Assembly: GCA_016926735.1 (NCBI GenBank)
Contig: JAFGOA010000002.1
Coordinates: forward strand, 1 to 17,990
Reading direction: 5' to 3'
DNA from: Promethearchaeota archaeon
GTDB lineage: Archaea; Asgardarchaeota; Lokiarchaeia; Sigyniarchaeales; SOKP01
DNA: 17,990 bases
The notes under the pieces were generated by a model. It saw only the letters and a list, made by a program, of their open reading frames with translations, did not search any database and was not told the DNA's origin. Of this stretch, positions 1-17,990 are shown in pieces (position 1 is the first letter of the stretch; each line of letters begins with the position of its first letter). Made by a program: the position numbers and the translations under genes.

Positions 1-56
1 TTTATTATATATAACTATATTATTTAAATAAGAAAATTCAAAAAAAAAAGATCTTT

Positions 57-2678
57 ATGTATCAACGAAATCGAAAAATAAATTTTATAATTATTCTAAT
101 TCTTATCAGTTTCATTTTAATCTCTATTTTAAACAATCTATTATTTATAAGAACTCCCTATAAATTAAAATCTATTGAATATTATGAGAAAACAATTAAG
201 AACAATGCAGATCCTATAGAGGCAGCTTATATAACTACTTATTATAATTATAGTGGACATGCATTCGATGTTTTTATAGTAAATGATTTAATTTTTATAG
301 CAGATAATATGGATGGTTTAGAGATTATTAATAGCTCAAATCCAACAGATCCTATAGGAGGATATAGATTTAATACATTTAGTTCATGTAGAGGTGTATT
401 TATTTCAGGGGATTTAGCATATCTTGCGTATGATTCAGAAGGATTAATAATTGTCAATATTAGTGATCCTTATCATCCAAAACAAGTTGGGACTTTTTCT
501 GAAGCCAATAGTAATGCACAGAAAGTATATATAGAAGGTAATATCGCATATATTGCAGATGGAACTAATGGGCTTCAGTTAATCGATATTAGGAATCCAG
601 TAATTCCAACAAAAATAGGGCAATTTGGATATGGTAATAATAATACAAAAGATATATTTGTTTCAGGTACTATAGCTTATATTGCAGATGGAACCGATGG
701 TGTTGAAATTGTGGATATAAGTGATCCTACTCTTCCAGTTCTAATTGGTCAATACTCAGATACACAAAATGACTCAAATGCTATATTCCTTTATTATGAA
801 ATATTGTATATTGCAGATGGAATTGATAAAGTTGAAATTGTGGATGTGAGTGATCCTAGCACTCCTTTTGAAATAAATAATTATAATATGGCAGGTACTG
901 CTCAAGATATAATTATTTTTGGTAATACGGGTTATTTTGCCAGTAATTCAGAAATTTTAATTGTTGACATTAGTGACCCAACAGATATTACCGTATTAGA
1001 AAGTTTTTCATACTCATCTGAAGCAAGAAGTATCTTTCTTCATAAAAATACTCTTTATATAACCCGATATTATTTTGGTTTAGATATTGTTAATGTTGAA
1101 TTAATTGAAGGGATATGTCAATCACCTCAATATCTAGGTCAATTTATTGAGAATGAGGGAACAACGACATCATTATATATAACTGGTAATATTGCTTATA
1201 TGGGAGATAATATAGGCGGTCTATATTTAATCAATATTACTGATCCAACAAATCCAACAAAAATTGGTCAGTATTCTGATGATTATAACGACACGCAAGA
1301 TATTTATGTTTCTAATAATATAGCTTATATCGCAGATGGAAACGATGGTTTAGAAATAATTAATGTCACAGATCCTTCAAATCCAATTCGAATTGGAAAT
1401 TATTCTTCAGGAAATTATTTAGCAAGAGGGATTTATGTATCTGGAAATTGTGCTTATTTGGCAGAAGCATTTTATGGTCTTAGAATTATTGATATCTCTG
1501 ATCCTACAAACCCTACATTATTAGGAAGCGTACCTTCATCTGGAGCTAAGAATATTGATCTTATAGGAAAATATGTATTTTTAACACGTTGGGGGGAGGG
1601 ATTAAATATAATCGATGTAAGTGACCCTTCAAATCCCTTTGTAGTAAGCTCTACTAATGACTATATAGGAATGTCAATGGGAATTAGAATATCACAAGAT
1701 TATGCATATGTTGCTGATTTAATAAATGGATTAGAAATAATAGATATTCATAATGTTTTTAACCCTTCTGAAATGACTCCATTTAAAGAAGGGACAACTG
1801 GTGAGCCTCAATCTGTTTTTCCATTTGGAAATAATCTATTTCTTGCCGATGGAGGTGAAGGAGTAGAAATAATTAATGTTACATCACTTAATGATATCAC
1901 AGTTCTACAAAGAACCAGCACGTTAGCAAGAAATGTATGGGTGGATAGTTCATATATCTATTATACCGCTTTTGCAGGAGGACTCAAAATTTTTACTAAT
2001 GGATATGTAAATCCATATAAAAATGATAATGATACTGATGGACTAACTGACGGCCAGGAATTATTCGAATATGGAACCAATCCAAATGATAATGATTCTG
2101 ATGATGATGATTTGAATGATGGTGATGAAATTATTTATGGAACCGATCCAAATATTTGGGATTATGATATAGATGGAATGCCCGATGGATGGGAAATAAC
2201 TAATGATCTGGAACCGACAATAAATGATGCAAATAGTGATTATGATCATGATGGAATTAACAACATAGATGAGTATAATTCAATTTATAACTTATTTGCT
2301 AATAATAATGATTCAGATACAGATGGTATGCCTGATGGGTGGGAACTTCAATATAGTTTAATTCCTGATATTAATGATGCTAATTTAGATCCCGACATTG
2401 ATAATCTTTTAAATATTGATGAATATCTCAATGGATGCAATCCACATAATGAAGATTGTGATAATGACGGATATAATGATGGAGCAGAGGTTATAGCAGG
2501 TACTGACCCCTTAAATCCAAATAGTTTTCCTGGGTCTGGAGGTAATGGGGGAATTCCTTGGTGGTTACAAGCTATTTTAGCAGGAATGATAAGTGCATTA
2601 GTTGGAATACTGATAAGAACGATTTATCACAGATATAGAACTTCTAAAGGTCCAAAAAGAAAATATAAATATAAATAA
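57..2678 (+). CDS. Membrane-anchored surface protein: LVIVD-repeat beta-propellers plus thrombospondin type-3-like Ca-binding repeats and C-terminal TM anchor
   Basis: N-terminal basic plus hydrophobic segment; about 14 repeats of ~43 aa of the form AYIADGxxGLEIIDISDPxxP (LVIVD); Asp-rich DxDxDG(L/M)xDGxE repeats at about aa 657-825; Gly linker, then IPWWLQAILAGMISALVGILI TM helix and Lys/Arg-rich tail. Confidence 0.85.
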   Translation: MYQRNRKINFIIILILISFILISILNNLLFIRTPYKLKSIEYYEKTIKNNADPIEAAYITTYYNYSGHAFDVFIVNDLIFIADNMDGLEIINSSNPTDPIGGYRFNTFSSCRGVFISGDLAYLAYDSEGLIIVNISDPYHPKQVGTFSEANSNAQKVYIEGNIAYIADGTNGLQLIDIRNPVIPTKIGQFGYGNNNTKDIFVSGTIAYIADGTDGVEIVDISDPTLPVLIGQYSDTQNDSNAIFLYYEILYIADGIDKVEIVDVSDPSTPFEINNYNMAGTAQDIIIFGNTGYFASNSEILIVDISDPTDITVLESFSYSSEARSIFLHKNTLYITRYYFGLDIVNVELIEGICQSPQYLGQFIENEGTTTSLYITGNIAYMGDNIGGLYLINITDPTNPTKIGQYSDDYNDTQDIYVSNNIAYIADGNDGLEIINVTDPSNPIRIGNYSSGNYLARGIYVSGNCAYLAEAFYGLRIIDISDPTNPTLLGSVPSSGAKNIDLIGKYVFLTRWGEGLNIIDVSDPSNPFVVSSTNDYIGMSMGIRISQDYAYVADLINGLEIIDIHNVFNPSEMTPFKEGTTGEPQSVFPFGNNLFLADGGEGVEIINVTSLNDITVLQRTSTLARNVWVDSSYIYYTAFAGGLKIFTNGYVNPYKNDNDTDGLTDGQELFEYGTNPNDNDSDDDDLNDGDEIIYGTDPNIWDYDIDGMPDGWEITNDLEPTINDANSDYDHDGINNIDEYNSIYNLFANNNDSDTDGMPDGWELQYSLIPDINDANLDPDIDNLLNIDEYLNGCNPHNEDCDNDGYNDGAEVIAGTDPLNPNSFPGSGGNGGIPWWLQAILAGMISALVGILIRTIYHRYRTSKGPKRKYKYK
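678..858 (+). repeat. Near-identical direct repeat in two adjacent LVIVD blades (678-729 and 807-858)
   Basis: 45 of 52 nt identical by manual alignment, offset 129 nt (43 codons). Confidence 0.8.
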
Positions 2679-2855
2679 TTCTGAAAATAAATCAATATTT
2701 TTCTCTTTTTTTTTAAATTTTTATTTTTTTTACAGATAAATCATTCTTTTCTTGAATCAAATTATTTGTATAATTTTAAATTTTAAAGACAGCAATTTTA
2801 ATTTCTTTTACACATTTAAAATAATTATAAATAAATAAACAATAAATAAATTAGA

Positions 2856-5054
2856 ATGAAAAAACTTAATTTTCCTTTTACCGCTATACTTGGACAAGAT
2901 AAAATGAAAATGGCGTTAATTTTAAATGTTATTGATCCTCAAATAGGAGGAGTGTTATTATCTGGCCATCAAGGAACAGGTAAATCTACAGCTGTTCGTT
3001 CATTAGTAGAGGTCATGCCTAAAATTAATATTGTTAAAAAATGTCTTTTTTCATGTGATCCTGAATCAGATTTCGATGATTTATGTTTAGAGTGTCAAAA
3101 TAGAAAGGAAAATAATAAAATTGAAATAGAAACAAGAGATATGCTTTTAGTGAATTTACCATTAGGTGTGACAGAAGATATGGTTTGTGGGTCCCTTTCA
3201 ATTGATAAAGTTCTTACAAAAGGTATTTCTGAATTACATCCAGGATTATTAGCTAAAGCCAATAGAGGAATCTTATATATAGATGAGATTAATCTTTTGC
3301 AGGATCATATTGTAGATACACTGTTGGATGCTTCCGCATCAGGAATAAATATTATTGAACGTGAAGGAATTTCTATTAGGCATCCTTCAAGATTCGTATT
3401 AGTAGGATCAATGAATCCTGAGGAAGGAGAACTTAGGCCTCAAATTGCAGATAGATTAGGTTTAGAAGTGAAAATTTTTGCACCCAAAGATCTAAAATTA
3501 AGAGCTGAGATTTCTAAAAGAGTTATATCATATAATGATAATCCAAGAGAATTTATTAAAAGTTATGAAAAAGAGCAGGAAATATTAAAAAATAAACTGA
3601 TTAAAGCTCGTAAAATAGTTAAAAAAGTAAAAATTCCTGATTCAATTTTTGAAATAGTGTCTAAGATAGTTGACGAACTTCAAGTTTTTTCTCAAAGAGC
3701 AGATTTAACATTTATAAGATGTGCTAGAGCACATGCTGCCTTTGAAGATAGAATAATAATTAATGAAACAGATATAAATATTGCAATGGATTTAGTATTT
3801 GAACATAGAATAAAATCTTTACATTATGAAATGAGCCCAGAAGAAATTAAAGGAAAAATAACGGAAGTATATGGAAAAATAAAAAAAGCATATGAAGATC
3901 CAAATATATATAAGCCAAATAAAGATACTGAGGGTCCATTAAAACATTCTGATGAACCTCAAAAAGAATTTACAAGACAATCTATTGATCCAAATAATTT
4001 GGATATTCCAGACACAAAAGAGGAAAAATTACCTCCACCTAAATATCCTGACGAAAAAAAAAGAGACTCTAGTCCTGCGGGAGGATGGAAAGTTAAAGAA
4101 TTACCTTGGAACGAACAATTCAATATAACTGAAGATAATTCACTTCCATTAATATTTAAGATGGAAAAGAAAATGTCATCCATTTTGGATAATATTCGTA
4201 AAGAAAGAAAAGTATCAAATTATGGGGGGAGAGGAATTGGAAGAAGAATAAAAATTTCCTCAAACCAAAAAGGGAGATATATATCATATAGACCACCAAT
4301 TAACTTTCAACCAAAAAGTATTGCACTTGATGCAACAATTAGAAATTATTTAAAAAATACAATATATAATACAACACAAATTGAATTTCCTCTTAGAGTT
4401 GATAAATATGATTTAATGGATAAAATATTCGAGTATCGAGCACCTTTAGCTCTTTTTTTTGTTTTGGATAGTTCAGCATCTATGTTCTATGTTATTAAAC
4501 AAATGACAGATGTAATACTCTCTTTACAAAAGGAAGGATATAGAAAGAAAGATAAAATTAGTTTAATTGTATTTAGGGGAAAAGAAGCAATTACAATTCA
4601 AAAGCCTACAGTATCTTTTCAAAATGCTATCCAAAAGCTAAAAAATATTGAAAGTAAATCCTATACACCTATGGCTGCTGGATTAAATAAATGTCTTGAG
4701 CTTATAAAAATTGAAAAATTAAAAAATAGAAATATTATACCAGTCATTTTCATTTGTTCTGATTGTGGGGCAAATATTTCTGTGAAATATCCAGATCTCA
4801 TTGCTCAAGTTGAAAATGATTATATATCAATTGTTCAAGAATTAAAAGATATCACTAAATCATTATCACATCAAAATGTACATATGGTTGTTTTAGAACC
4901 AAAAAAGAGTTATGCAACTCAAAATCTTGGAGTACATCCTTATTCAGCAGAACAAATTAAAAAAAATTTTAAAGATTATGGAAATGCTGAGATCTATCAA
5001 TTCGATAGATATAATCCTTCTTCATTAATTTTAAAATTGAAAAAGATTCTATAA
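2856..5054 (+). CDS. chlD: Mg/Co chelatase subunit, ChlD/BchD-type (ChlI-like AAA+ domain, Pro/acidic linker, vWA domain)
   Basis: FPFTAILGQ start typical of ChlI/D; Walker A GHQGTGKS; PGLLAKANRGILYIDEINLL Walker B; GSMNPEEGELRPQIADR; Pro-rich linker; vWA MIDAS DSSAS...T...D. Confidence 0.85.
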   Translation: MKKLNFPFTAILGQDKMKMALILNVIDPQIGGVLLSGHQGTGKSTAVRSLVEVMPKINIVKKCLFSCDPESDFDDLCLECQNRKENNKIEIETRDMLLVNLPLGVTEDMVCGSLSIDKVLTKGISELHPGLLAKANRGILYIDEINLLQDHIVDTLLDASASGINIIEREGISIRHPSRFVLVGSMNPEEGELRPQIADRLGLEVKIFAPKDLKLRAEISKRVISYNDNPREFIKSYEKEQEILKNKLIKARKIVKKVKIPDSIFEIVSKIVDELQVFSQRADLTFIRCARAHAAFEDRIIINETDINIAMDLVFEHRIKSLHYEMSPEEIKGKITEVYGKIKKAYEDPNIYKPNKDTEGPLKHSDEPQKEFTRQSIDPNNLDIPDTKEEKLPPPKYPDEKKRDSSPAGGWKVKELPWNEQFNITEDNSLPLIFKMEKKMSSILDNIRKERKVSNYGGRGIGRRIKISSNQKGRYISYRPPINFQPKSIALDATIRNYLKNTIYNTTQIEFPLRVDKYDLMDKIFEYRAPLALFFVLDSSASMFYVIKQMTDVILSLQKEGYRKKDKISLIVFRGKEAITIQKPTVSFQNAIQKLKNIESKSYTPMAAGLNKCLELIKIEKLKNRNIIPVIFICSDCGANISVKYPDLIAQVENDYISIVQELKDITKSLSHQNVHMVVLEPKKSYATQNLGVHPYSAEQIKKNFKDYGNAEIYQFDRYNPSSLILKLKKIL
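4054..4089 (+). other. Candidate -1 frameshift/slippage signal in the chlD linker (A9 run, downstream hairpin, -1 frame TAG at 4070-4072)
   Basis: In-frame GAA AAA AAA AGA gives A_AAA_AAA at 4055-4061; GTCCT-GCGGG-AGGAT stem-loop at 4072-4086; position is just past the AAA+ domain. Confidence 0.5.
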
Positions 5055-5168
5055 TAAAATTTTTTTCGTATTATTTTTCTATTAAATTATATTATTTGTT
5101 AAACTCTCAATTCGATCTGATCAGTTCTTTTAATTTAAAGAAAAAAAAAGAATGAGTTTTCAAAATAA
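5055..5168. terminator. Convergent intergenic region with U-rich tracts on both strands (putative archaeal terminators for chlD and copA)
   Basis: T tract from about 5060 on +; AAAGAAAAAAAAAG at 5137-5150 gives a U tract on -. Confidence 0.35.
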
Positions 5169-8033
5169 TTAACCAATTATCATATTTTTATTATGATGTT
5201 TTGGTACAGATTCTTTTCCACATTCTGGACCCATCCAGCATACTAATTGATCTCCTTGTATATGCATTGGTTTTCCACAATGCATAGGTATATCCATTTC
5301 CTGTTCACATTCTTGGCATTTTAATTTTTGAATTTTTTCTTCCACCTCCTCTGATTTTTTAATTTGATCTTTTTTATACATCAGTTTTGGATTCATATTC
5401 TTAAAATCTTTATAGATACCTGGATTATCTTTAAATTCATTTTCGCAATATAAACTACAAAAATAAAATTTCTCCTCGTTATATTCATACTCAAGGGATT
5501 GACTTGGAATAATTTGCATTCCACAAACTGGATCAAATACTTTTTCTTCTAAAAGTAATTTGGATTCTTCAATTTGTTGTTCAGTTTTTGGTTCAAAACG
5601 CTTTAAAAATAATGCATTGGTAATAACGGAAATAGAACTGGTTGCCATAAATACAGCTGCTAAATATGGAGGAAGAAAAAATCCAGTAATTCCATATAAA
5701 ATCCCTGCAGCTAACGGTATTCCAATAATATTGTATATAAACGCCCAAAAAAGATTAGTAATCATTTTTCTATAAGTTTTCTTTGATAAATTAATAGCAG
5801 ACACAACATTTCTTATATCTCCACGCATTAAGACGATGTCTGCGGTTTCTATTGCTATATCAGTTCCAGATCCTATCGCAATTCCTACATCTGCTTGAGC
5901 TAATGCAGGAGCATCATTTATTCCATCTCCCACCATAGCAATAATACGATTTTCTTTAGATTTTTGCAGTTTTTGAATATTCAGAGCTTTCTCATTAGGT
6001 AATACTTCAGCAAGTATATGATTTTGTTGAATATTGAGTTGTTCTCCAATACTTAATGCTGTTTGTATATTATCTCCTGTTATCATATAAATTTCTATTT
6101 TCATTTCTCTTAATAAATTCAAAGCATAAAGAGCCTGTTCTTTAATTTTATCTGAAATTCCAATAATTCCTTTAATTTGATTATCAATAGAGACTAAAAT
6201 GCTAGTTATTCCTTTTTGTTGTAACTCAGAAAATTTATTTTTAAAAACTTCTTCAAAGTCTATATCAAATTCAGATAGAAGTTTTTTAGTACCTATAATT
6301 ATGTATGTATTATTAATTGTTGCTCTAATACCTTTTCCCGGAGATTCCTTAAAATCTGTTGGATTTTCAAGAATTATATTTCTTTGATTAGCTTCTTCAA
6401 TTATAGCTTTACCAAGAAGATGTTCAGATCCTAATTCTGCACTTGCTGTGTAGTATAAAATATCTTTATCATCAAAACCTTGACCTTTCAGACTTTTTTC
6501 TGAAATAATAATAGATACTTTAGGTTTTCCAATAGTTAATGTTCCTGTTTTATCAAAAACAATTGTATCAATACTATTAATTGCTTCTAAAGAATCGCCA
6601 CCTTTAATAAGTAATCCATTTTCTGCACCTTTTCCGGTTCCAACTAAGATTGCTGTAGGAATAGCTAATCCTAAAGCACATGGACACGCTATAACTATAA
6701 CAGATGTAAATATTTGGAGAGCAATCTCAATTCTCACACTTAAAAGTGCGGAATATATCAGAGTACCCCAAAAATACCAATAAATGAACGCACTGATTGC
6801 TATAATTATTACAAAAGGAACGAAATAATTACTAATTTTATCAGCAAGTTGTTGTTTTGCTGCCTTTCTATTCTGAGCTTGTTTTACAAAATTAATTATT
6901 TGAGAAAGAACAGTATCTTTCCCTATTTTTTCTGTTTCAATATGAATTAATCCTGTTTGATTAATTGTAGCTCCAATTACTCCACTATCAATTGTTTTTT
7001 TAACATATCTACTTTCACCGGTTATCATTGATTCATCTACTTTAGTTTTCCCTTTTATTACTCTTCCATCGACAGGAATTTTTTCTCCTGGTCTAACAAT
7101 TATTATATCGCGTATTTCAATTTCTTCGATTGGAATCTCGATTTCCCTTCCTTGTCTTAATAAAGTAGCTGTTTTAGGTTGGAGACCTATTAGTTTTTTT
7201 ATTGCTTCTGAAGTCTTACCTTTTGTTTTATGTTCTAGATATTTTCCTACAAGTAAAAAGGAAGTTATCATACTCATAGCTTCATAGAAAGTCTTTCCCG
7301 AAATAAAAAAAGTAGTTAAAATAGAATAAATCAATGCTGTAGAAGTTCCTAAGGCTATCAATACATCCATATTTGTAGATTTATTTTTTAGTGATTTATA
7401 AGCACCTTTGATAAAAAAAGAGCTACATAATACATAATTTCCAATAGCTAAAAAGAAAAGGATTAAATTCTTTTCAAATGAATCTCTTACAAACCAAGCT
7501 ATAGGAGTAATAATTATTGAAAAAAATACAGAAATCAGTAGAATTTGAAGTCGATATTTCATTTCTTTTTTATGAATTTCTATTTCTTCATCAATAGCTC
7601 CTTTGACTTTTTCTATCTCTAGTCCTAAATTTCTTATTTTTTGATATATTTGGTTTTCTTCTAAAGTATAATCATTATATTCTATGAATAATTTAAGAGC
7701 GCTATAATTATCTCTTATTTTTAGGATACCGTCTATTAATTTAATTTCATCTACCTTTTTTTTAAACTGTTCCTCTGACAATGTACTATTGATTTTGAAC
7801 TCAACTTTTGCTAAAGATGCTTTGTATCCTAAATCTTGTATAGCTTGGTTAAATTCTTTATAACCAATTTTTTCTCGATTAAATTTTACATTTGCTTCTT
7901 CGATTGCAAAATTTACGATAGCTTCTTCAACACCATTAAGATTTTTCAGTTTATTTTCTATTTTTAATGCACAATTAGCACAAGTCATACCACTTAGTTT
8001 TATATTTATATTATCATTCGTGTTTTTACTCAT
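5169..8033 (-). CDS. copA: Cu(I)-translocating P1B-1 ATPase with N-terminal HMA, degenerate second HMA, C-terminal YHS/TRASH and an extra Cys/His domain
   Basis: GMTCANC; TGES; CPC; DKTGT; [11 protein letters not shown]; TM YN and MxxSS Cu(I) ligands; DPVCGM...[11 protein letters not shown] domain; GGTG Shine-Dalgarno-like motif at 8044-8041. Confidence 0.95.
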
Positions 8034-8087
8034 TTAGATACACCATTTTTCAATTTTAAGAATCTAAAAAATAAATTTTTACCATTT

Positions 8088-8117
8088 TGTATATATACAT
8101 AAAAGTATATATTTAAG
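8088..8117. promoter_or_regulatory. Candidate operator overlapping the putative copA TATA box
   Basis: Perfect palindrome TGTATATATACA at 8088-8099; inverted repeat ATATATAC-N6-GTATATAT at 8091-8112; CTTAAATA TATA-like box on the - strand at about 8117-8110. Confidence 0.55.
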
Positions 8118-8186
8118 CATAACTATTATAAAATAAATACTAATAAATTAAATAGGTTTCTTATTATTAATAAAGAAAATATAGGT

Positions 8187-8639
8187 TTGATAATATTGAC
8201 TGAAATTAAGGATATTAAAGTACAGAATTTAACAAAATTGTATATATTAGTTTTGTTAAATTTAAATAAACATGTTACTGGTTATTATATCATTAAAAAA
8301 TTAAGTGAAGATTTAAATAAAACTGTAAGCCCAACATATATATATGATTTTTTAAAGAAACTTAAAGCTAAAGAATATATTGAAGATGTTCCAGCTCAAA
8401 AGTCGAAAAGAAAGAAGGGTTATAAATTAACACCTACAGGGAAGGAATTTACAGAAAAAATTTTTCTTAGATTTAATAATTTAATAGAAGTAGCTGTTCA
8501 ATCAAAAATATCTATATGTGCTAGTTGTGGTGTTAAATTATATGAAAATTATCATACTGAAGAAATAAATCAAAAAAAAATGAATTTTTGTTGTAAACAT
8601 TGTGCTAGTGCTTATTTGAATTCTAATAAATCAAATTAA
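8187..8639 (+). CDS. PadR-like winged-HTH regulator with C-terminal TRASH metal-binding domain (CopT/CopR-like copper sensor)
   Basis: TGYYIIKKL...VSPTYIYDFLKKL...YKLTPTG wHTH; CASCG...FCCKHC TRASH motif; divergent from copA. The true start may be the TTG at 8196, given AGGT at 8183-8186. Confidence 0.8.
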   Translation: MIILTEIKDIKVQNLTKLYILVLLNLNKHVTGYYIIKKLSEDLNKTVSPTYIYDFLKKLKAKEYIEDVPAQKSKRKKGYKLTPTGKEFTEKIFLRFNNLIEVAVQSKISICASCGVKLYENYHTEEINQKKMNFCCKHCASAYLNSNKSN

Positions 8640-8921
8640 TTAAAAATATTTTATTCAAATAATAATGTTAAATTTTTAATATGTTTCTTTATTTGAATTA
8701 GAAAAAACTCTTTATCCATAAATCAGAAATCTATATTATAAAATTGGATAAATAAGTAATCTAGAGCTTTTAACTAAGATTTTATTAATTTTTAAAAAAC
8801 AATATAATAATCTCAACTATAAAAGATAAAAGCTATTTAAGATTAATTCACTATATTCCTATATTATTTTAAAATTTAAATTTATAATTAGATATTAATA
8901 AAATTTTAGGATTTTGTTCCT

Positions 8922-10070
8922 ATGAATAAAATTAGAATTGGAATTATTGGCATAGGAAATTGTGCTAGTTCTTTAATACAAGGGATTGAATATTATAAAA
9001 ACAAACAAATAGATAATGCTATTGGATTAATGCATTGGAATATAGGTGGATATATCCCTTTAGATATAGAAGTTGTTTGTGGATTCGATGTTGATGCTAG
9101 AAAGGTAGGGAAGGATATTTCTGAAGCTATTTTCGCACCTCCTAATTGCTGTAGCACCTTTTATGAAAAAATCCCTTATAAAAATGTAAAAATTAAAATG
9201 GGAAAAATTTTAGATAGCATAGCACCTCATATGAAATATCATGATGAAAAATTATCTTTTGTTATTTCCAAGGAAAATGAAGCAACTAAAGAGGATATTG
9301 TAAAAGAATTGACTAATACTAATTGTGAAATATTAATTAATTTTATTCCCGTAGGTTCAGAAAACGCCACAAAATTTTATGTTGAATGTGCTCTTGAAGC
9401 AAAAATAGGATTTATTAATTGTATTCCTGTATTTATTGCCAGTAATCAAGATTGGGCAAGAAGATTCGAAGCTATGAATATTCCTATAATAGGAGATGAT
9501 ATTAAATCACAAATAGGGGCAACTATTATACATCGAGTGCTTACCAATTTATTTAAAAAACGGGGTGTAAGACTCAATAGAACATATCAATTAAATACAG
9601 GAGGAAATACTGATTTTTTAAATATGATTGATAGGTCAAGATTAATTTCCAAAAAAAAATCTAAAACAGAAGCAGTTCAATCTCAAATGGATAATAGATT
9701 AAAGGATGAAAATATACATATTGGTCCAAGTGATTGGGTTCCTTGGCAAAAAGATAATAAAATATGTTTTATAAGAATGGAAGGTAATATATTTGGCGAT
9801 ATACCTATTGATCTAGAATTAAGACTATCAGTTCAAGATTCTCCAAATTCTGCTGGAGTTGTTATTGATGCAATAAGATGTATGAAATTGGCATTGGATA
9901 GAAATCAAGGAGGACTTTTATATTCACCATCGGCTTTTTTTATGAAACACCCACCTTTACAATTAACAGATGAAGATGCCTTTAAACTAGTAGAAGACTT
10001 TATAAATGGAAACCACATTGAAGAAACTCCAACAGAAATAAAAAATTACATTAAAAACAATTTAAAATAG
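8922..10070 (+). CDS. ino1: Myo-inositol-1-phosphate synthase (archaeal/actinobacterial short type)
   Basis: GIGNCASSL, GDDIKSQIGAT, YQLNTGGNTDFLN, SKKKSKT, DSPNSAG and FFMKHPP motifs. Confidence 0.95.
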   Translation: MNKIRIGIIGIGNCASSLIQGIEYYKNKQIDNAIGLMHWNIGGYIPLDIEVVCGFDVDARKVGKDISEAIFAPPNCCSTFYEKIPYKNVKIKMGKILDSIAPHMKYHDEKLSFVISKENEATKEDIVKELTNTNCEILINFIPVGSENATKFYVECALEAKIGFINCIPVFIASNQDWARRFEAMNIPIIGDDIKSQIGATIIHRVLTNLFKKRGVRLNRTYQLNTGGNTDFLNMIDRSRLISKKKSKTEAVQSQMDNRLKDENIHIGPSDWVPWQKDNKICFIRMEGNIFGDIPIDLELRLSVQDSPNSAGVVIDAIRCMKLALDRNQGGLLYSPSAFFMKHPPLQLTDEDAFKLVEDFINGNHIEETPTEIKNYIKNNLK

Positions 10071-10098
10071 AATATATTTGGCTCTGGTTTAAATTATT

Positions 10099-12576
10099 CT
10101 AATTTAATATTATAATTTTTTTTTCTTGTGGTGTAGATACTTTTTCTACTCCTAATGTTGTTACATATTCAGCTACATCAAGTAATTTTTTTGGATTTTC
10201 ATGAAAAAAACATACCTCTTTTGGTTCCAGACTTTTTATCATTTCAGTCAATTGAATTTTATCGCCATGTAATTTAATTTTAATTTGAGGAGCAAATTCA
10301 TTAATCAATAATGCTCTAATAGGTACTTTCCAAGTTTCTGATAACTCAATTGACTTTTCTTTAGGATCACTTTCTTCTGGAGGATTCAAAAGACTATACC
10401 CGGGTTCTTCATGAATTGCTCCTGCTAAGAATATAATATTATGTGGATTTCGTCCAATTATGTTTATAATATTTCTAATTATTCCATAAGATAAATCAGG
10501 TGGGTGAGATATAATAATATTATTCTTTTTTTTTAGAAATTCTAAATTATCTCGATCAAACCAACGAAATTTTATACTATTAAAAGGATTTGCTTTATCT
10601 CTTATTAATCTTGAAATTGGTCCATAAATATATTCATATCGATGATTTATTACTTGTATATTCTTTCTTACCATCATATCTACATAAATATTAGGTCTTT
10701 TATCGTACGATCTTTTTAATTGTTTCTTTCTGAAATGTCGCCAAAACGTTAACATTAAACTGATTGCTAAGCTCGAAGGATCTGCTCCAATTAAGGAACT
10801 ATCCCCATATTCTGCTTTTTGTTCTAGAAATAATATCAAACTGTGAAAATGTTGAGAAGGATTTCCATATTCTTCATATGCATTAGATCCATCTATTAGG
10901 AGAAAATCTATAGGACGAGATATTTGTTTTAAGAATCTTTGTGTTCCTGCAAATGGTGTTATATCATAATAAGTATAATCCCCAGAATAAAGAAAACGAT
11001 AATCTTTGGCTTTTACTAATAACATTAATGCTCCAGGCATATGACCAGCATGAAAAAATGAAAAATAATAATTTTTTTCTTTAAATGCTATTTTATCGCC
11101 ATTTTCTACATATATTACATTTTTAATTATATTAAGATATTCTTCATCTATAATTTCATCTTTCTGTTCTTGTTTTAAAAATTCAGAATCTCTAAGTAAA
11201 TAAAGATCTAATGTAATTCTAGAACACAATAATGGTATATTTGGATATTTTTTAATTAGATCTTTTAATCCTGAAACGTGGTCATAATGACTATGGGAAA
11301 GAAAAATAGCATCGATCCTAGGCTCAAAACCTTCTTCGTTTAGAATAGATACTTTTTGTTGAATTTCATCAGAATTAATATCTATCCTTTCAGGATCTTT
11401 TACAATGATTTCTTTTTTTCCAATTAAGTTTTTATTTGTATCAATAATATTATCTTCAATTTTAGATTCTGAATTTTCTTGGTCTTGTTCAATAATCTCT
11501 TCAAAATTACGTAATTCTTCAATATCTTCTAATTTTATTCCTTGTTCTTCTTCATTTCCAGAGAGAATTATTTTACTCTTTTCTATATTCTTTAAACATT
11601 CATTTAAATTTTCCAGATAATTATCTATATCCACTAAAAACTCTTCTGTTATCCCACAATCTAAAAGAATATTTAATTGACCAAGTCCAAGAATAATACA
11701 ATTATGATTAGGTCGTAAAGCAATAGGGTAAAGGGTTATTCGTATTTTACTTGAATCTGATAAATTGGTAGATAATGAGATATCATTAAAATAATTCTGA
11801 TCAAACCTCTTCTCTACCTTATCAATTGCAATTGAGATTTCACTATCTCCAACTGGAATTCCCGTAATATAAAAATACCAACCATATTTTATTACAAGAG
11901 CTTCTAAATTTTCATACATTTGATCCCCAATTAATGATTTAATAACAATAACCTTTTCATCATTGTAATAATTAATTTTTCTTATAGCTTCCTTTTCTTT
12001 TAGAGGAACCAATTCTGAATTAATAAAGAAGTCTTTTATTGTTTCATCAATAGGAGTTTGCTTAATTTTTCTATCCTTAATTATATTGAGATATTTACGA
12101 TATTCTTTTGTTTTATATAATGGACGCATATTTTTTTTTTCATTTATGGGTATTTCAAAAACCTCTTCTTTAAAAGTTCTGGTATTTACTGTAATCTCTT
12201 GTTTTTTTTCTTTTTTTTCAGATGGTGGTTTTTCACCATATGTTTTTATTACGAAAAAAAACCAACCATATTTATCTATCAATTTGTTTCTATTCCATAT
12301 TAGGTCTTTTCCTTTGGGAGTTACAACAATAATTATTCTTTCATTTTTCTTATAGATTATTTTGGTAATTGAATTTTTAGTGGGCTCAGAAATCAAATTA
12401 TTATCATTCGAAAAGAAATCATCCAAAACCTGATTAATATCAAGTTGAATAATATTTTTTTCTTCCATATATTTTATTTTTTGAATATAAGAGTTGATTT
12501 TAAAAGAGATTTTCAAAATATCATCTTCTAATAATTCGATCTCTTGAGTTTTGTATCTAAATGATTTCTTTTCCAT
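10099..12576 (-). CDS. Divergent metallo-beta-lactamase/beta-CASP family nuclease with long N-terminal extension
   Basis: LLDCG, SHSHYDH, AGHMPG, YSGD, LIDGS, LHGD and FFHE motifs in canonical beta-CASP order. Confidence 0.8.
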   Translation of the reverse strand: MEKKSFRYKTQEIELLEDDILKISFKINSYIQKIKYMEEKNIIQLDINQVLDDFFSNDNNLISEPTKNSITKIIYKKNERIIIVVTPKGKDLIWNRNKLIDKYGWFFFVIKTYGEKPPSEKKEKKQEITVNTRTFKEEVFEIPINEKKNMRPLYKTKEYRKYLNIIKDRKIKQTPIDETIKDFFINSELVPLKEKEAIRKINYYNDEKVIVIKSLIGDQMYENLEALVIKYGWYFYITGIPVGDSEISIAIDKVEKRFDQNYFNDISLSTNLSDSSKIRITLYPIALRPNHNCIILGLGQLNILLDCGITEEFLVDIDNYLENLNECLKNIEKSKIILSGNEEEQGIKLEDIEELRNFEEIIEQDQENSESKIEDNIIDTNKNLIGKKEIIVKDPERIDINSDEIQQKVSILNEEGFEPRIDAIFLSHSHYDHVSGLKDLIKKYPNIPLLCSRITLDLYLLRDSEFLKQEQKDEIIDEEYLNIIKNVIYVENGDKIAFKEKNYYFSFFHAGHMPGALMLLVKAKDYRFLYSGDYTYYDITPFAGTQRFLKQISRPIDFLLIDGSNAYEEYGNPSQHFHSLILFLEQKAEYGDSSLIGADPSSLAISLMLTFWRHFRKKQLKRSYDKRPNIYVDMMVRKNIQVINHRYEYIYGPISRLIRDKANPFNSIKFRWFDRDNLEFLKKKNNIIISHPPDLSYGIIRNIINIIGRNPHNIIFLAGAIHEEPGYSLLNPPEESDPKEKSIELSETWKVPIRALLINEFAPQIKIKLHGDKIQLTEMIKSLEPKEVCFFHENPKKLLDVAEYVTTLGVEKVSTPQEKKIIILN

Positions 12577-12740
12577 AGTAAATTTTATAATTTTTAATAA
12601 ATATAACTTATGATTTAATACGATTTATTGTAATAAAATTTAATTATAGTTGATTTTATTGATAATCTTGGTTTAGTAAAACCTTTATTTGAATCTTAAA
12701 ATTTAATCATAATTATATTTAAATATCAGTTTTTTTAGAA

Positions 12741-12932
12741 TTATCTTCTTTCAGTAATAACACATATATCATCTATAGAGATATACGAAATGTTGTTATA
12801 TTTATCTTCAATCATCAATAAGTTATCATTAGCTATTTCTACTAATTTTCCACTAAATTTTTCATTTAAATTTTTAATATGAATATAGACATCTAGATTT
12901 ACTAATTTTTCAAAAACACTTTTTGGGATCAT
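12741..12932 (-). CDS. Small Sm/LSm/Hfq-like fold protein
   Basis: 63 aa; helix then V-x-I-x-I..KFSGKLVEI..NLLMIED..ISYISIDDICVI pattern matches the Sm1/Sm2 strand arrangement. Confidence 0.6.
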   Translation of the reverse strand: MIPKSVFEKLVNLDVYIHIKNLNEKFSGKLVEIANDNLLMIEDKYNNISYISIDDICVITERR

Positions 12933-13067
12933 AATATTCTTTGATTTATTGTTATTATTGTATTAATTAGATAACTAAAAATAAATATTTTAGGAATATT
13001 TAGAAAAAAACATAAGAAAAAAGTTCCTTTAATAATTTATTGAAAAGATTAATATTGTATATTAGTT

Positions 13068-13640
13068 ATGAGTGGATTACATTTTGTATGGGGAATTACT
13101 GGTTCAGGATATTTAATAAAGGAATCAATAGACCTAATGAATCAATTACAGGAACACCACGAGGTTGACCTTACAGTAGCATTATCAAAAGAAGGTGCTA
13201 TCGTTGTAAAATGGTATAAACAATGGGATTATTTAAATGAAGTAGTGAAAAAAGTAAAGGTTGAGACTAGTCCAAATAATCCTTTCCTTGCTGGACCTCT
13301 CCAAATTGGTAAATATGATTTTTTACTTGTATGTCCTGTATCTGCTAATTCAGTAGCTAAAATAGTCTGTGGAATTGCAGATACCTTAATTACAAATTGT
13401 GTTGCTCAAACAATAAAAGGAGGAATTCCGGTCTATTTATTGCCATCAGATCAACATGATACTCCAATAGTCACTTCAAGAACGGATGGAACACCACTTA
13501 TTCTCAAAATTAGAGATATAGAAATGCAAAATATAAATTTATTAAAAAAAATGAGGGGTCTTACAGTATTTTCAAATTTCGAAGAATTAAAGAAATATTT
13601 TAATACAAAACTACAATTTTATAGGAAGACTTTTGATTAG
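13068..13640 (+). CDS. afpA: Archaeoflavoprotein AfpA-like FMN protein (HFCD flavoprotein superfamily, related to dihydromethanopterin reductase DmrX)
   Basis: WGITGSG, LSKEG, LAGPLQIGKYD and PVSANSVAKIVCGIADTLITN motifs; no Fe-S insert. Confidence 0.75.
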   Translation: MSGLHFVWGITGSGYLIKESIDLMNQLQEHHEVDLTVALSKEGAIVVKWYKQWDYLNEVVKKVKVETSPNNPFLAGPLQIGKYDFLLVCPVSANSVAKIVCGIADTLITNCVAQTIKGGIPVYLLPSDQHDTPIVTSRTDGTPLILKIRDIEMQNINLLKKMRGLTVFSNFEELKKYFNTKLQFYRKTFD

Positions 13641-13658
13641 ATAAACAGATAAAAAAAA

Positions 13659-14210
13659 ATGCCATACAAAGAAATTAAAATAGAACAAATAATATTCGAA
13701 CCAGATGTTCAATCTTATTGCAATACAAAAGATTATAAATGTCCAAATTATAATCATTCATGGGCCTGTCCTCCAGTATCACCATATTTAGAATATGAAG
13801 TTGCTAAATACTCAAGATTTTATTTGATATATTATAAATTTAATTTAAATGCTTATATTAATAAATATCAAAAGAAAAATTCTAGCAAGAATAATAAAGA
13901 GATATTATATTCACTTTATTCACAATATATAATAAGAGATCATTTAGAAGAAGAAATATTGAATTTTCTAAAGGAATATAAAGCAATTTATAAAGAAAAA
14001 CTAATTTTATGGGATGGATTTTGTCGAAAATGTTATAAGGAAAAACTTTCTTGTACCTATGATAAAAAAATGCCTTGTCGCTATAATCTAAGATATTCTA
14101 TGGAAGCTGTAGGCATTAATGTTGATAAAACTGTTAGAAATATAGGAATCAATATAGAATGGCCTCAAATTGAATATGTTTATAGATTTGGCTTAGTATG
14201 TTTTAAATAA
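13659..14210 (+). CDS. DUF2284-family Cys-rich predicted metal-binding protein
   Basis: C...CPNY..SWACPP, GFCRKC...C...PCRY and RYSMEAVGINV motifs; 18 nt after afpA. Confidence 0.8.
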   Translation: MPYKEIKIEQIIFEPDVQSYCNTKDYKCPNYNHSWACPPVSPYLEYEVAKYSRFYLIYYKFNLNAYINKYQKKNSSKNNKEILYSLYSQYIIRDHLEEEILNFLKEYKAIYKEKLILWDGFCRKCYKEKLSCTYDKKMPCRYNLRYSMEAVGINVDKTVRNIGINIEWPQIEYVYRFGLVCFK

Positions 14211-14250
14211 TAGAAAGAAGTTTATTATATGAGTAATACAAAGGACATGT

Positions 14251-14688
14251 TTAGATTTTAAACCTATAACTAATAGCATCTTCAGGACATAATCTAACAC
14301 AATTTAGACATCCATTACACTTAATAGAATCAATCATTTTAATTTTAATCATTTCTTTAGTATTTCTCAAATGAAATTTGTAAAATAGTTTCTGAGGATA
14401 AAAGTTTTGTCCTTTATCAATACATATTTCACATAAATTACATTTTTCAAGATCTATATTAATGGATATATTCTGTGAAAAATCTTCGCTTGATATAACG
14501 GTAATTGCATTTCTTGGACAAACTTGAATACAATTAAAGCACCCCTTACATTTAATATAATTTATATATCTGACTCCGTTTTTAAAATTAATAGCCTTAT
14601 TCTTGCAAGCACGTACACATCGTTCACATTTAATACAAATATTTTGTTCAATGTGAATTGGAATAAATTTTTCTTTAATTTGACTCAA
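14251..14688 (-). CDS. Polyferredoxin (up to four 4Fe-4S clusters)
   Basis: CIKCERCVRAC, CKGCFNCIQVCP, CNLCEIC and CNGCLNCVRLCP; TTG start. Confidence 0.85.
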   Translation of the reverse strand: MSQIKEKFIPIHIEQNICIKCERCVRACKNKAINFKNGVRYINYIKCKGCFNCIQVCPRNAITVISSEDFSQNISINIDLEKCNLCEICIDKGQNFYPQKLFYKFHLRNTKEMIKIKMIDSIKCNGCLNCVRLCPEDAISYRFKI

Positions 14689-14987
14689 TTCATAAATTAA
14701 GCATATTAATATAATTATTTATTCAAAATAAAAAAGGTAAATTTAGGATAAAAATAGTCCTTTTATATTTTAAATTAGGTCAATCTATCGAATATTTCTG
14801 TAATTCATTTATATTATTTTAATTCAAATATGTATTTATTCATTCTTTAAATTGATGAATATTCTTTAAAAAAGATAAAAAGTATAGTAACATAAATCTT
14901 AAAAGATACCTGATGAGTGAACTTTTTATTATTAGATAAAATTATGAAAAAGATGTGTTAAGATAATAAGTATATTATAATCTGTAA

Positions 14988-15782
14988 TTAACGATAATAT
15001 TGTGGATAATCTCCTTTTGAACCTTGCTCAGATAATTGTTTCCTGCTGAATTCTTGTGCTTTCTCTGCCAATTCAAGCATTTTCTGTTTAATTTCCTTTC
15101 CTTCTTCCATTAATTGAGAGATATTAATGTTTAACCCATAAATTTCATTTAAAATTGAAATAATTGAAGCTGCAGCTTCTGGAGTTGGAATTTGATATAC
15201 AGGAGCAAATAAAGCATATCCCTGCAATTTATTTGATAATGTTTCATTGAGTATAGTTGATTCTGGTCCAATGATTATTCCTTTATCAAATTTTTTTATT
15301 CCATATTGCTCAAGATAATCTACTAACTCTGCTTCAGCAGCATAATAGACTGAGAAATCATCAATTACTCCCGCTTGAGGAATACCTTGGAAAATAACTA
15401 TCTGTTTTGCTTGAACATCCTCATTTAGAGCCCAATTATTTATAGTTCTCGCCAAATCATTATAAGCAGATGATATTTCAAAAGGAACCTCACATATTCC
15501 TATGATAATATTAAATTTTGGTGAATAATATACTCTAAAAGGATGTTTGAGTACGCCAGAATAAAACACTGATATAGGGGGAAGAAATTCACTAGTAATA
15601 AAACCAATTTCTTTTATATCAGGTATCTGTTTTATAAGTGTATTTGCTATAATAGGACCTATAAGACCAATACCCGCAAAGCCTAATAAAATAGTAACAT
15701 CTTTTTTAATTTGTGTTGAAAAGTCTTCAATAACAACTTTACTTTTCCTTCCAGGATCACATATATATTCCTTAACAACCAT
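14988..15782 (-). CDS. PAC2-family proteasome assembly chaperone (PbaA/PbaB-like), copy 2
   Basis: GFAGIGLIGPI, LPP...HPFRVY, PTPEAA and L.EEGKEIK motifs; C-terminus QYYR (HbYX). Confidence 0.85.
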   Translation of the reverse strand: MVVKEYICDPGRKSKVVIEDFSTQIKKDVTILLGFAGIGLIGPIIANTLIKQIPDIKEIGFITSEFLPPISVFYSGVLKHPFRVYYSPKFNIIIGICEVPFEISSAYNDLARTINNWALNEDVQAKQIVIFQGIPQAGVIDDFSVYYAAEAELVDYLEQYGIKKFDKGIIIGPESTILNETLSNKLQGYALFAPVYQIPTPEAAASIISILNEIYGLNINISQLMEEGKEIKQKMLELAEKAQEFSRKQLSEQGSKGDYPQYYR

Positions 15783-15855
15783 ATAATATCATTAATTTTC
15801 GTTTTTATAACATTTTTTAATTTTAGATTTAAATATAACAAAGATTAAAAGTTAT

Positions 15856-16644
15856 TTATTGATAATATTGACTATATCCATCCTTTGTACCTTCAGAAAG
15901 TTGTTTACTCTGGAGTTCTTGGGTTTTTTCAGCTAATTCTAACATTTTTTCTTTAATTTCTTTTCCTTCCTCTAATAATGCGGATGTATTGATATTCATT
16001 TTGAATTTCTTATTTAATATATTAATTAGAGAAGCAGCTCCCTCAGGTGTTGGAATCTGATAAACAGGAGTGAATAATATAAGAATTTCTAATCGATTGG
16101 TTAATGCTTCATTTATAATAGTTGCTTCAGGACCAACAATGATTCCTTTTTCTACCTTTTTAATGCCTGCTTCTTCCAACTCTTTAATTAATTCGTGTTC
16201 TGAAGCATAATATACTTTAAATTCTTCAATCATACCTCCAGTGGGAATTCCTTGGAAAAGAATTACATCCTGAATATTAATATCATCAGATAATGCCCAG
16301 TTGCAAATTGTTTTAGCTAAATCACTATAGGCAGAGGGTAATTGAAAAGGAACTTCAGCAATTCCTAAGATTATATTATATTTTTGGCTATAATATAGTC
16401 GAAAAGGATGTTTAAGAACACCATCGTAAAATGTTGAAATTGGGGGTAACATTTCTGAAGTAATAAACCCAATTTCCTTTAAATCTTTTATCTGTTCTAC
16501 TAATGTATTTCCAATAATAGGACCTAATAATCCGATTCCTGCAAAACCTAATATAAGTGTTGGATTATCTTTGAATTTTACAGAGAGATCCTCTATAACC
16601 ACTTTACTCTTTTTTCCAGGAGGACATATATATTCCTTTTTCAT
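15856..16644 (-). CDS. PAC2-family proteasome assembly chaperone (PbaA/PbaB-like), copy 1
   Basis: GFAGIGLLGPI, HPFRLY and PTPEGA motifs; C-terminus QYYQ (HbYX). Confidence 0.85.
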   Translation of the reverse strand: MKKEYICPPGKKSKVVIEDLSVKFKDNPTLILGFAGIGLLGPIIGNTLVEQIKDLKEIGFITSEMLPPISTFYDGVLKHPFRLYYSQKYNIILGIAEVPFQLPSAYSDLAKTICNWALSDDINIQDVILFQGIPTGGMIEEFKVYYASEHELIKELEEAGIKKVEKGIIVGPEATIINEALTNRLEILILFTPVYQIPTPEGAASLINILNKKFKMNINTSALLEEGKEIKEKMLELAEKTQELQSKQLSEGTKDGYSQYYQ

Positions 16645-16889
16645 TTTTCCAAATTTTGTTTATTAATTGAATAAATTATAAAAGCTATATTTTTAAATTT
16701 TATTTAAAATCATAAGATTTAGTCTGATTTTAAAGTCTATATTTTTAAAAATAATTGATACTTATAATATAAAAATTAGAAAGATACTAAATTTTATGTA
16801 AATAAAATATTTTTCATTATTTTTTTTTCAATTAGTATTATCATAATAAACAAATTTAGTACTAGTCTTTAAAATTATACAAAAGAAGA

Positions 16890-17966
16890 ATGTCAAAGTA
16901 TAAAAAATCAATTTTAGTTATAGGTTTTAATACACGTCCAATAGTACAATCACTATACAGAATTGGGTTAAAAATATATGTCATTGATTTTTTTGGGGAC
17001 TTGGACCTATATCCCTATGTAGAAGATAGTATTATTATATCAAAAAGAATTAATAAGAATTATTTCAATCTAAAAGATGATTATAAAAGTCATTTAGCTA
17101 ATTTTACAATCGAATTATTAGAAAAATACCCAAATATCGATTACATACTGATTGGGAGTGGATTGGATGATTCCTTTAATGAAAGATTACTAATTAAAGA
17201 AAAAATCAAAAGAAGAAAATCTATAATTGAGCTTCATAATTCTATAGAAACAATAGTGAAAGCAAGAGACATCTTAAAAATTTATGGAATAATAAAAAAA
17301 AGAGGATATCACACTCCATCAACAAAAATTCTAATTGATTTTGATTTGAATAACGATCATATACAATATCCATTTATTCTTAAACGAAAAAATAGTTCAG
17401 GAGGAATCAATGTAAATCTAATTAATAGTAAAGCACAGTTTATAGATAAAACAAATTACATCATGACTCAAAATCAAGAAAAAGAGTGGTTGGTCCAGGA
17501 ATATATAGATGGAATAAATATAAGCAGTACTATCATATCTAATGGAAAACATGTTGAAATTATCTCAATAAATCAACAGATTATTGGTTTGAATTTTGTA
17601 AATTCACCCAAAGAATATATGTATTGTGGAAATATCGTTCCAGCAAATATATCTAAAGATGAAATTAATGATATCATAGAAATATCAAAATTTTTATCTA
17701 AATTCCTAAGATTGAGAGGCATTAATGGATTTGATTTTGTTGTTAGAGATAAAATTCCATATTTAATGGAAATAAATCCTAGAATTCCAGGTTCTCTTCA
17801 AGCATCTGAAAATGCTTTAAAAAAAAATTTATTAAAATTACATATAGATTCTTTTTTTTCAGACAAATGGAATTCAATGAAGAATTGTTTAAATTCAAAA
17901 AAAAAAAAAAAGAATTTTTCAACAAAATTAATATTTTTTTCTCCAAAAAAAAAAAAACAAAATTAA
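16890..17966 (+). CDS. ATP-grasp ligase, COG2232-like (associated with methanopterin/methanofuran C1 pathways); 3' end probably unreliable or truncated
   Basis: GFNTRP, IDFFGDLDL, VQEYIDG, YCGNIVP, GINGFDF and MEINPRIPGS motifs; the last ~100 nt degrade into A/T homopolymers. Confidence 0.75.
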   Translation: MSKYKKSILVIGFNTRPIVQSLYRIGLKIYVIDFFGDLDLYPYVEDSIIISKRINKNYFNLKDDYKSHLANFTIELLEKYPNIDYILIGSGLDDSFNERLLIKEKIKRRKSIIELHNSIETIVKARDILKIYGIIKKRGYHTPSTKILIDFDLNNDHIQYPFILKRKNSSGGINVNLINSKAQFIDKTNYIMTQNQEKEWLVQEYIDGINISSTIISNGKHVEIISINQQIIGLNFVNSPKEYMYCGNIVPANISKDEINDIIEISKFLSKFLRLRGINGFDFVVRDKIPYLMEINPRIPGSLQASENALKKNLLKLHIDSFFSDKWNSMKNCLNSKKKKKNFSTKLIFFSPKKKKQN

Positions 17967-17990
17967 ATAAAAAAAAAAAAAAAAAAAAAA

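Follow-up and report, generated by a model that had tools for sequence, protein, structure and literature searches.

A small Sm-fold protein and a CPSF73-type beta-CASP nuclease encoded side by side in a Lokiarchaeial genome are probably separate neighbours

When a gene for an Sm-fold protein stands directly upstream of a gene for a beta-CASP nuclease in an Asgard archaeon, do the two encode the parts of one RNA-processing machine, or do they simply adjoin? The question is raised by a 17,990-nucleotide (nt) stretch of DNA from a Promethearchaeota archaeon (contig JAFGOA010000002.1, positions 1 to 17,990; the whole of it is called the window here), for which an original prediction had proposed an RNA-binding ring partnered with a specialised nuclease. 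A working partnership of this kind would give archaea, and among them the lineage closest to eukaryotes, a parallel to the Sm-ring/CPSF73 machinery with which eukaryotes process the 3' ends of histone mRNAs. Our comparison across genomes points instead to two separate neighbour genes in one Lokiarchaeial clade, with no conserved two-part machine, and we regard this as the probable explanation of the locus.

Both open reading frames (ORFs) are genuine genes and not chance frames. According to the ORF list, the small gene occupies positions 12741..12932 on the minus strand (63 aa plus stop, ATG start), and its product, a divergent member of the DUF6897 (MM0924-like) proteins, is an acidic small beta-barrel for which the Sm/Hfq fold is predicted; the nuclease gene occupies 10099..12576 on the same strand (825 aa, ATG start) and, as judged from its sequence, encodes a CPSF73/aCPSF1-type beta-CASP metallo-nuclease that is a Lokiarchaeial lineage-specific paralog. 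The two are co-oriented with the small gene upstream, the gap at 12577-12740 measures 164 nt, and both flanking genes lie on the opposite, plus strand, so that the layout described in the original prediction agrees with the ORF coordinates. The small gene is present as a single copy in the host genome (27.1 bits in a genome search with DUF6897), which comprises 3.88 Mb and is 99% complete. The host is an Asgard archaeon, since close relatives of the two proteins bear the label Candidatus Lokiarchaeota or Promethearchaeota; this is the setting in which the prediction had seen its interest. In what follows, G numbers denote genomes and g numbers genera, the host being G000 of genus g1.

The gene order in related genomes bears directly on the question. 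Of 30 small-gene loci, 8 have the small gene directly upstream of the nuclease gene and on its strand (G000, G117, G019 and G030 in g1; G135, G316 and G183 in g5; G303 in g73), and in the other 22 the pair is unlinked. Counted from the nuclease, it is directly upstream in 5 of 30 loci, some of which have only ~430-590 nt of upstream flank, and in 5 of the 24 named loci with 4-kb flanks. The two genes stand on separate contigs in g2, g4, g6 and g72; the upstream neighbour of the nuclease in g4 is a gene of ~220 aa, and the small gene in g4 and g6 is convergent with an unrelated (alpha/alpha)6-type gene (11 of 30 loci). In a maximum-likelihood tree of 28 orthologs and 5 outgroups, which left out G306, G310 and G313 (g5, no small gene) as well as G117, G316 and G303, the five adjacent loci form one clade with support of 100/100, and a single change suffices to explain them. 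Since the adjacent loci map to one clade, the adjacency is best counted as one evolutionary event; gain and loss of the small gene at the nuclease locus cannot be told apart, because the base of the family in this tree is poorly supported. The three g5 genomes left out of the tree belong to the same genus as three of the adjacent cases, and in them the nuclease gene is divergent from a flavoprotein ortholog across a spacer of ~165-195 nt, with no small gene between; the flavoprotein encoded in the window is 73% identical to the neighbour in G310. The spacers between small gene and nuclease in the eight adjacent loci range from 158 to 254 nt and are never operon-tight. No pairing was seen at distant nuclease loci (0 of 5) or at canonical DUF6897 loci (0 of 12). 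The marks by which we would recognise a conserved pair, namely adjacency across independent lineages and tight spacing, were therefore not found for these two genes, and the synteny check that had been suggested for the module across Asgard genomes has for the most part shown an adjacency that is not conserved.

The distribution of the two genes leads in the same direction. A hand tally of the 61 genomes scanned for both recorded 31 with both genes (2 of them weak), 22 with the nuclease only, 3 with the small gene only and 5 with neither; with G306, G310 and G313 added, no small gene was recovered from 25 of the 56 genomes that carry the nuclease, among them G071, G113 and G276 at 100% completeness. 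A profile search for the small gene likewise returned nothing in the five genomes rechecked (5/5), and its positive control succeeded in 3 of 3. In genera where it is unlinked to the nuclease, the small gene is nevertheless conserved at 40-56% identity, implying that its core function needs no adjacency, and in most genomes it would play a role independent of the nuclease. An obligate module for RNA processing, made up of an Sm ring and a beta-CASP nuclease and corresponding in archaea to the U7 small nuclear ribonucleoprotein (snRNP) with CPSF73, would account for an Sm fold, a CPSF73-type nuclease, an Asgard host and the co-orientation and proximity of the genes. The pairing, however, is confined to one small clade, the nuclease usually occurs without the small gene, the two are unlinked at most small-gene loci and unpaired at distant homologs of either gene, and the small protein has neither LSM/Hfq sequence membership nor an Sm1/Sm2 motif. 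Taken together, these results make such a module, the central claim of the original prediction, very improbable.

The spacer itself suggests how the nuclease gene may be expressed on its own. This AT-rich intergenic stretch of 164 nt (12577..12740, minus strand) is poorly conserved except for one block: its alignment across five adjacent loci gave a mean column identity of 52%, and the conserved part is a 16-nt block at 12632..12647 (minus strand), 55 nt before the nuclease ATG, with the sequence ATA[A/G]TTAAATTTTATT. The block is present in 7 of the 8 adjacent loci, lying 55-70 nt from the nuclease ATG and 88-169 nt after the stop of the small gene, and all 8 loci compared for its core T-AAATTTTATT, 3 of which are without the small gene, have it unchanged. 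It is nearly unique in the 3.88-Mb genome, where exact copies number 2 vs 1 for the reversed control. Because the block is retained whether or not the small gene is there, and follows the position of the nuclease ATG, we infer that it is part of the nuclease's own promoter or operator; in DNA of ~20% G+C, TATA-like words are too common for a promoter to be called by sequence alone. The nuclease would then most likely be transcribed from its own promoter, marked by this AT-rich block 55-70 nt upstream, and the earlier remark that the gap is wide enough for separate promoters fits well with a conserved element inside it. Two metatranscriptome runs from the study that supplied the DNA placed no reads on 9900-13100, a result uninformative about expression or co-transcription. 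A different conserved element was observed in the nuclease upstream regions of g2, g4 and g6 (L019-L043), where the small gene is not adjacent: AAATCG, a few bases, and then 7-8 T, placed ~20-45 nt ahead of the nuclease start codon regardless of which gene lies upstream. This element could be a promoter, a 5'-untranslated-region element or a terminator.

A weaker form of partnership deserves separate weighing, as several observations speak for it and count against two separate neighbours. The pair has stayed intact across g1, part of g5 and g73, three genera, while its upstream neighbour changed from the flavoprotein gene (g1) to a 210-aa gene (G135, G316 and G303) or a 395-aa gene (G183), and retention of a pair through such a change is the pattern expected of weak selection for linkage. 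Genus g3 lacks both the nuclease (0 of 4) and the small gene (0 of 5) in the genomes searched, a mild co-absence. Contact between an Sm-fold protein and CPSF73 also has a precedent, the U7 snRNP entries 9nb1 and 6v4x being among our fold matches, and Rof (YaeO), a bacterial Sm-like rho inhibitor, offers a precedent for regulation by a protein of this kind. By analogy with these systems, an Sm-fold protein may have been recruited beside the nuclease in g1, g5 and g73 as a facultative, clade-specific accessory that modulates it, and it could do so by presenting RNA as a ring or, in the way of Rof, by binding protein as an acidic regulator. We consider this accessory role unlikely, although it is the most serious of the alternatives: the adjacency amounts to a single evolutionary event, three genomes within that clade have the nuclease with its upstream block but no small gene anywhere, the small gene is conserved where it is unlinked, and the spacer holds a conserved block that goes with the nuclease. 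Separately, all four g3 genomes inspected (G040, G129, G147 and G177; loci L133-L136) carry a high-scoring canonical DUF6897 gene of 62-67 bits, which may be a replacement or the ancestral form.

What, then, is the small protein, if it is not part of a machine? Its orthologs occur in 40 of the 81 genomes of the host's family at 40-95% identity, and 27 of the 30 extracted are exactly 63 aa long. Residues F26, G28, N47, I51, T60, E61 and R62 are invariant among them, and the signatures D-K-Y-N-N and I-T-E-R-R mark the family. DUF6897 (PF21838) is its only Pfam match above cut-off (27.7 bits against a gathering threshold of 23.9), accompanied by a weak echo of the RimP-C SH3 domain; the NCBIfam model MM0924_fam (NF041655) gives 29.1 bits, below its curated cut-off of 45. 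The subfamily is narrow: a profile search of 1.84 billion representatives returned 24 clusters only, of which 10 reach E <= 1e-10. No fusion of the small protein to another domain was seen among these 24 matches, the sole long protein (P0026, 1349 aa) being matched over 25 residues. Distant relatives of the small protein score around the same DUF6897 model, and canonical DUF6897 genes of 60-70 bits are present in other genera.

AlphaFold2, run on a 30-sequence alignment, modelled the small protein with a mean predicted local distance difference test (pLDDT) score of 93.7 as an N-terminal helix followed by five strands, and the strongly bent five-stranded antiparallel sheet behind the helix is the arrangement that defines the Sm fold. 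The beta3-beta4 loop has 5 residues and the protein is Hfq-sized overall. Structure comparison agrees, and the model thus supports the Sm/Hfq fold, the size and the short loop that had been read from the letters. This fold class also includes proteins that neither assemble into rings nor bind RNA, and because RimP-C, YaeO and designed SH3-like barrels score equal to Sm/Hfq proteins in the comparison, an RNA chaperone cannot be read from the fold alone. The sequence places the protein apart from the known Sm families: neither LSM (PF01423) nor Hfq (PF17209) matched it at E <= 10, and the D-x-x-M-N and R-G motifs of Sm1/Sm2 are absent from it, as is the Hfq Sm2 motif in what we take to be its usual form; one distant relative reaches a sub-threshold 16.3 bits to Hfq. 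The SmAPs of the host (L009-L011), by contrast, carry the classic D-x-x-M/L-N and I-R-G motifs, and hhalign of the small-protein family profile against each of them gave a probability below 2%, in keeping with the view that the small protein is not a canonical SmAP. The family is acidic, with a median isoelectric point of 4.95 and a net charge of -5 to 0. In Sm proteins the beta2-beta3 and beta4-beta5 loops form the nucleotide pocket; in the small protein these loops are rich in D, E and S. Most plausibly it would be a stand-alone oligomeric or protein-binding small barrel without the nucleotide-pocket motifs of SmAP and Hfq. Among the four LSM matches of the host we also noted L012 (contig C139, ~10590-11003, minus strand), a protein of 138 aa whose LSm-like N-terminal part is followed by a long C-terminal extension.

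Within the host's family the nuclease is widespread, with a match in 59 of 68 genomes; in the other families of the phylum, 5 of 232 genomes have one at E <= 1e-20. Pfam recognises Lactamase_B above cut-off, with Beta-Casp (22.5 vs 27.7) and RMMBL (19.8 vs 21.6) just under theirs. The aCPSF1 equivalog TIGR03675 gives 61.5 bits against a cut-off of 580.2, and RNase J (TIGR00649) gives 33.2 against 400; the family profile can be aligned with INTS11, CPSF73 and aCPSF1 as far as and including motif C. The enzyme is thus indeed a divergent beta-CASP nuclease, as had been suggested. The host has its canonical aCPSF1 on another contig (C188, 876.8 bits), and its RNA-processing set further includes two aCPSF2-like genes and four LSM-family genes; the host's aCPSF1 and its aCPSF2-like paralogs resemble the nuclease only around the metallo-beta-lactamase (MBL) motifs, the aCPSF2-like ones at E values of 1e-5 to 1e-13.

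Its catalytic core extends over aa 275-825 (10102..11754, minus strand), the region spanned by the structure matches and mainly covered when the whole 825-aa model was compared with VIA-align. Residues D306, H428, H430, D432, H433, H512, D533, D562, H691 and H792 are invariant in 28 aligned orthologs and belong to what we take to be MBL motifs 1-4 and beta-CASP motifs A, B and C; the HxHxDH motif lies at aa 428-433 (nt 11278-11295, minus strand). As ten residues of the catalytic core are invariant, the protein appears to be catalytically active and strongly constrained. The AlphaFold2 model has a mean pLDDT of 60.5 and is confident in the N-terminal repeats and the MBL core; a variable acidic insert in the MBL domain (aa ~332-411, nt 11344-11583, minus strand) and aa 566-772, the beta-CASP insert, were modelled at pLDDT <50. 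Judging from the alignments, we conclude that the nuclease is a lineage-specific CPSF73/aCPSF1-type beta-CASP paralog with an intact active site. It would act as a Zn-dependent RNase of the CPSF73/aCPSF1 branch, an extra, family-specific paralog beside the canonical aCPSF1/FttA. The nuclease gene next to the small gene in G303 (g73; L085, which is the same locus as L053, ~4290-6670) is broken, with an in-frame stop in repeat 1, three reading frames and a short inverted fragment of aa 280-315; it is either a pseudogene or an assembly error in the metagenome-assembled genome (MAG).

Ahead of the core, the N-terminal ~240 residues consist of one domain repeated in tandem: in hhalign, aa 1-112 match aa 130-240 with a probability of 99.8% (E 5.9e-28). 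Repeat 1 (aa 1-112) is encoded at 12241..12576 on the minus strand and modelled mostly at pLDDT 73-93; repeat 2 (aa 130-240), at 11857..12189 on the same strand, is the copy common to distant homologs with a single repeat. Those homologs, 589-676 aa long and found in four other families of the phylum, combine one repeat copy with the core at 25-37% identity and align to aa ~141-312 of the nuclease at 29-31% identity. The repeat domain gathered 348 clusters, all from Asgard MAGs, and where a cluster has a name it is generic, either "MBL fold metallo-hydrolase" or "Cft2 family RNA processing exonuclease". In the AlphaFold2 model both repeats end in the order helix-strand-strand-helix-helix-strand, which we take to be that of a type II KH domain. 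Full-length Foldseek alignments of the nuclease model to KH-CPSF structures were obtained, and an Atlas query gave a lead (0.77) to a KH_TffA cluster; a second Atlas query with aa 130-250 returned no usable match. Pfam KH models did not match aa 1-270, in hhalign the repeats stayed below 1% probability against the N-termini (KH regions) of 28 aCPSF1 proteins from Asgard archaea, and no G-x-x-G was present between the paired helices of the repeats in the sequence and modelled helices. The duplicated ~110-aa domain probably selects the substrate or a partner. Beside a distant nuclease homolog in G038, at ~3127-3576 of L074, we noted a long trinucleotide repeat that gives poly-Cys and poly-Leu frames.

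With the repeats described, the accessory idea can be put in its boldest form. In the clade of g1, g5 and g73, an acidic, motif-less Sm-fold protein might have been recruited as the regulator of a novel Asgard CPSF73-like nuclease. It would either present RNA as a ring or, in the manner of Rof, inhibit the nuclease by occupying its degenerate KH-like domains, and the pair would then be an independently evolved prokaryotic counterpart of the eukaryotic Sm-ring/CPSF73 partnership. We hold this reading to be quite unlikely.

A last alternative takes the locus for part of a defence system or mobile element, with the small gene as cargo or an indel gene and the nuclease as effector. The small gene does behave as a presence/absence polymorphism at the junction of flavoprotein and nuclease genes. 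Neither protein, however, matched a PADLOC family, PHROGs gave only a generic match to a metal-dependent hydrolase, and the composition of the locus is unremarkable for this genome. The prevalence of the nuclease across the family, together with a tree resolved by genus-level groups, fits vertical inheritance, and an origin in defence or mobility is scarcely credible. Two separate neighbours thus remains the explanation we prefer.

The rest of the window contains genes of other kinds. A myo-inositol-1-phosphate synthase gene (8922..10070, plus strand) is convergent with the nuclease gene, and the flavoprotein gene (13068..13640, plus strand; Pfam Flavoprotein) is the divergent neighbour on the other side of the pair. 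The flavoprotein gene is followed after 18 nt by a gene for a DUF2284 metal-binding protein (13659-14210, plus strand); these two form the only operon-tight pair near the locus, and they also flank the small gene in G117 and G019. Further along lie tandem paralogs of the PAC2 family (proteasome assembly chaperone-like) at 14988-15782 and 15856-16644, both on the minus strand and 73 nt apart. On the opposite side, a P-type heavy-metal ATPase with HMA, E1-E2 ATPase and YHS domains (5169-8033, minus strand) is divergent from a PadR-family regulator gene (8187-8639, plus strand) whose product carries a weak C-terminal TRASH-like metal-binding domain. The two are probably a metal-sensing regulator-pump pair, and nowhere in the window is the AT content higher than in the spacer that separates them (GC 0.19). 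The window begins with a gene for an 873-aa protein with 11 LVIVD repeats and bacterial TSP3 repeats (57-2678, plus strand), followed by one for a Mg-chelatase-like AAA+ protein with a C-terminal VWA domain (2856-5054, plus strand).

Since the evidence argues against a conserved module, the lasting value of the locus lies in its two parts, each of which is novel as a form of an already known type. One is a fourth nuclease of CPSF73 type in Lokiarchaeia, uncharacterised, present across the family and doubled in its N-terminal domain; the other is a rare family of acidic Sm-fold proteins. Both bear on the growth of RNA-processing complexity in Asgard archaea. We found no paper on the DUF6897/MM0924 family and nothing in print on the nuclease family, in a search that extended neither to bioRxiv supplements nor to subscription journals.

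Among known systems, the nuclease can be set beside aCPSF1/FttA (arCOG00543, TIGR03675), the archaeal termination nuclease, from which it differs in falling far under the cut-off of that family and in having a large, variable acidic insert in the MBL domain. Where aCPSF1 has two KH domains, the nuclease has in the same place a pair of ~110-aa alpha/beta repeats without a KH sequence signal. It also differs from aCPSF2, aCPSF1b and aRNase J, which have a core-only architecture, in possessing an N-terminal extension of ~270 aa. In the definitions that Phung et al. 2013 (PMC3553952) give for these groups, aCPSF1 is characterised by an N-terminal extension with two KH domains and the other three are core-only, without such an extension; by those definitions the nuclease fits none of the four.

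The small protein, for its part, can be regarded as a divergent subfamily of DUF6897/MM0924, one that passes the Pfam cut-off and fails that of NCBIfam. It resembles Hfq, SmAP and LSm proteins in fold, and differs from them in lacking their sequence membership and motifs and in having acidic loops at the position of the nucleotide pocket. With Rof (YaeO) no sequence relationship was detected, and the likeness is one of analogy. The U7 snRNP, in which an Sm ring with LSm10/LSm11 works with CPSF73, differs from the present locus in that the linkage here is not conserved, there is no sign of a guide RNA and the Sm-fold protein carries no Sm motifs. The likeness, as known from genes and predicted folds, is that an Sm-fold protein and a CPSF73-type nuclease come together in both, and in the U7 system, according to the title of the fold-match entry 9nb1, LSM11 contacts CPSF73.

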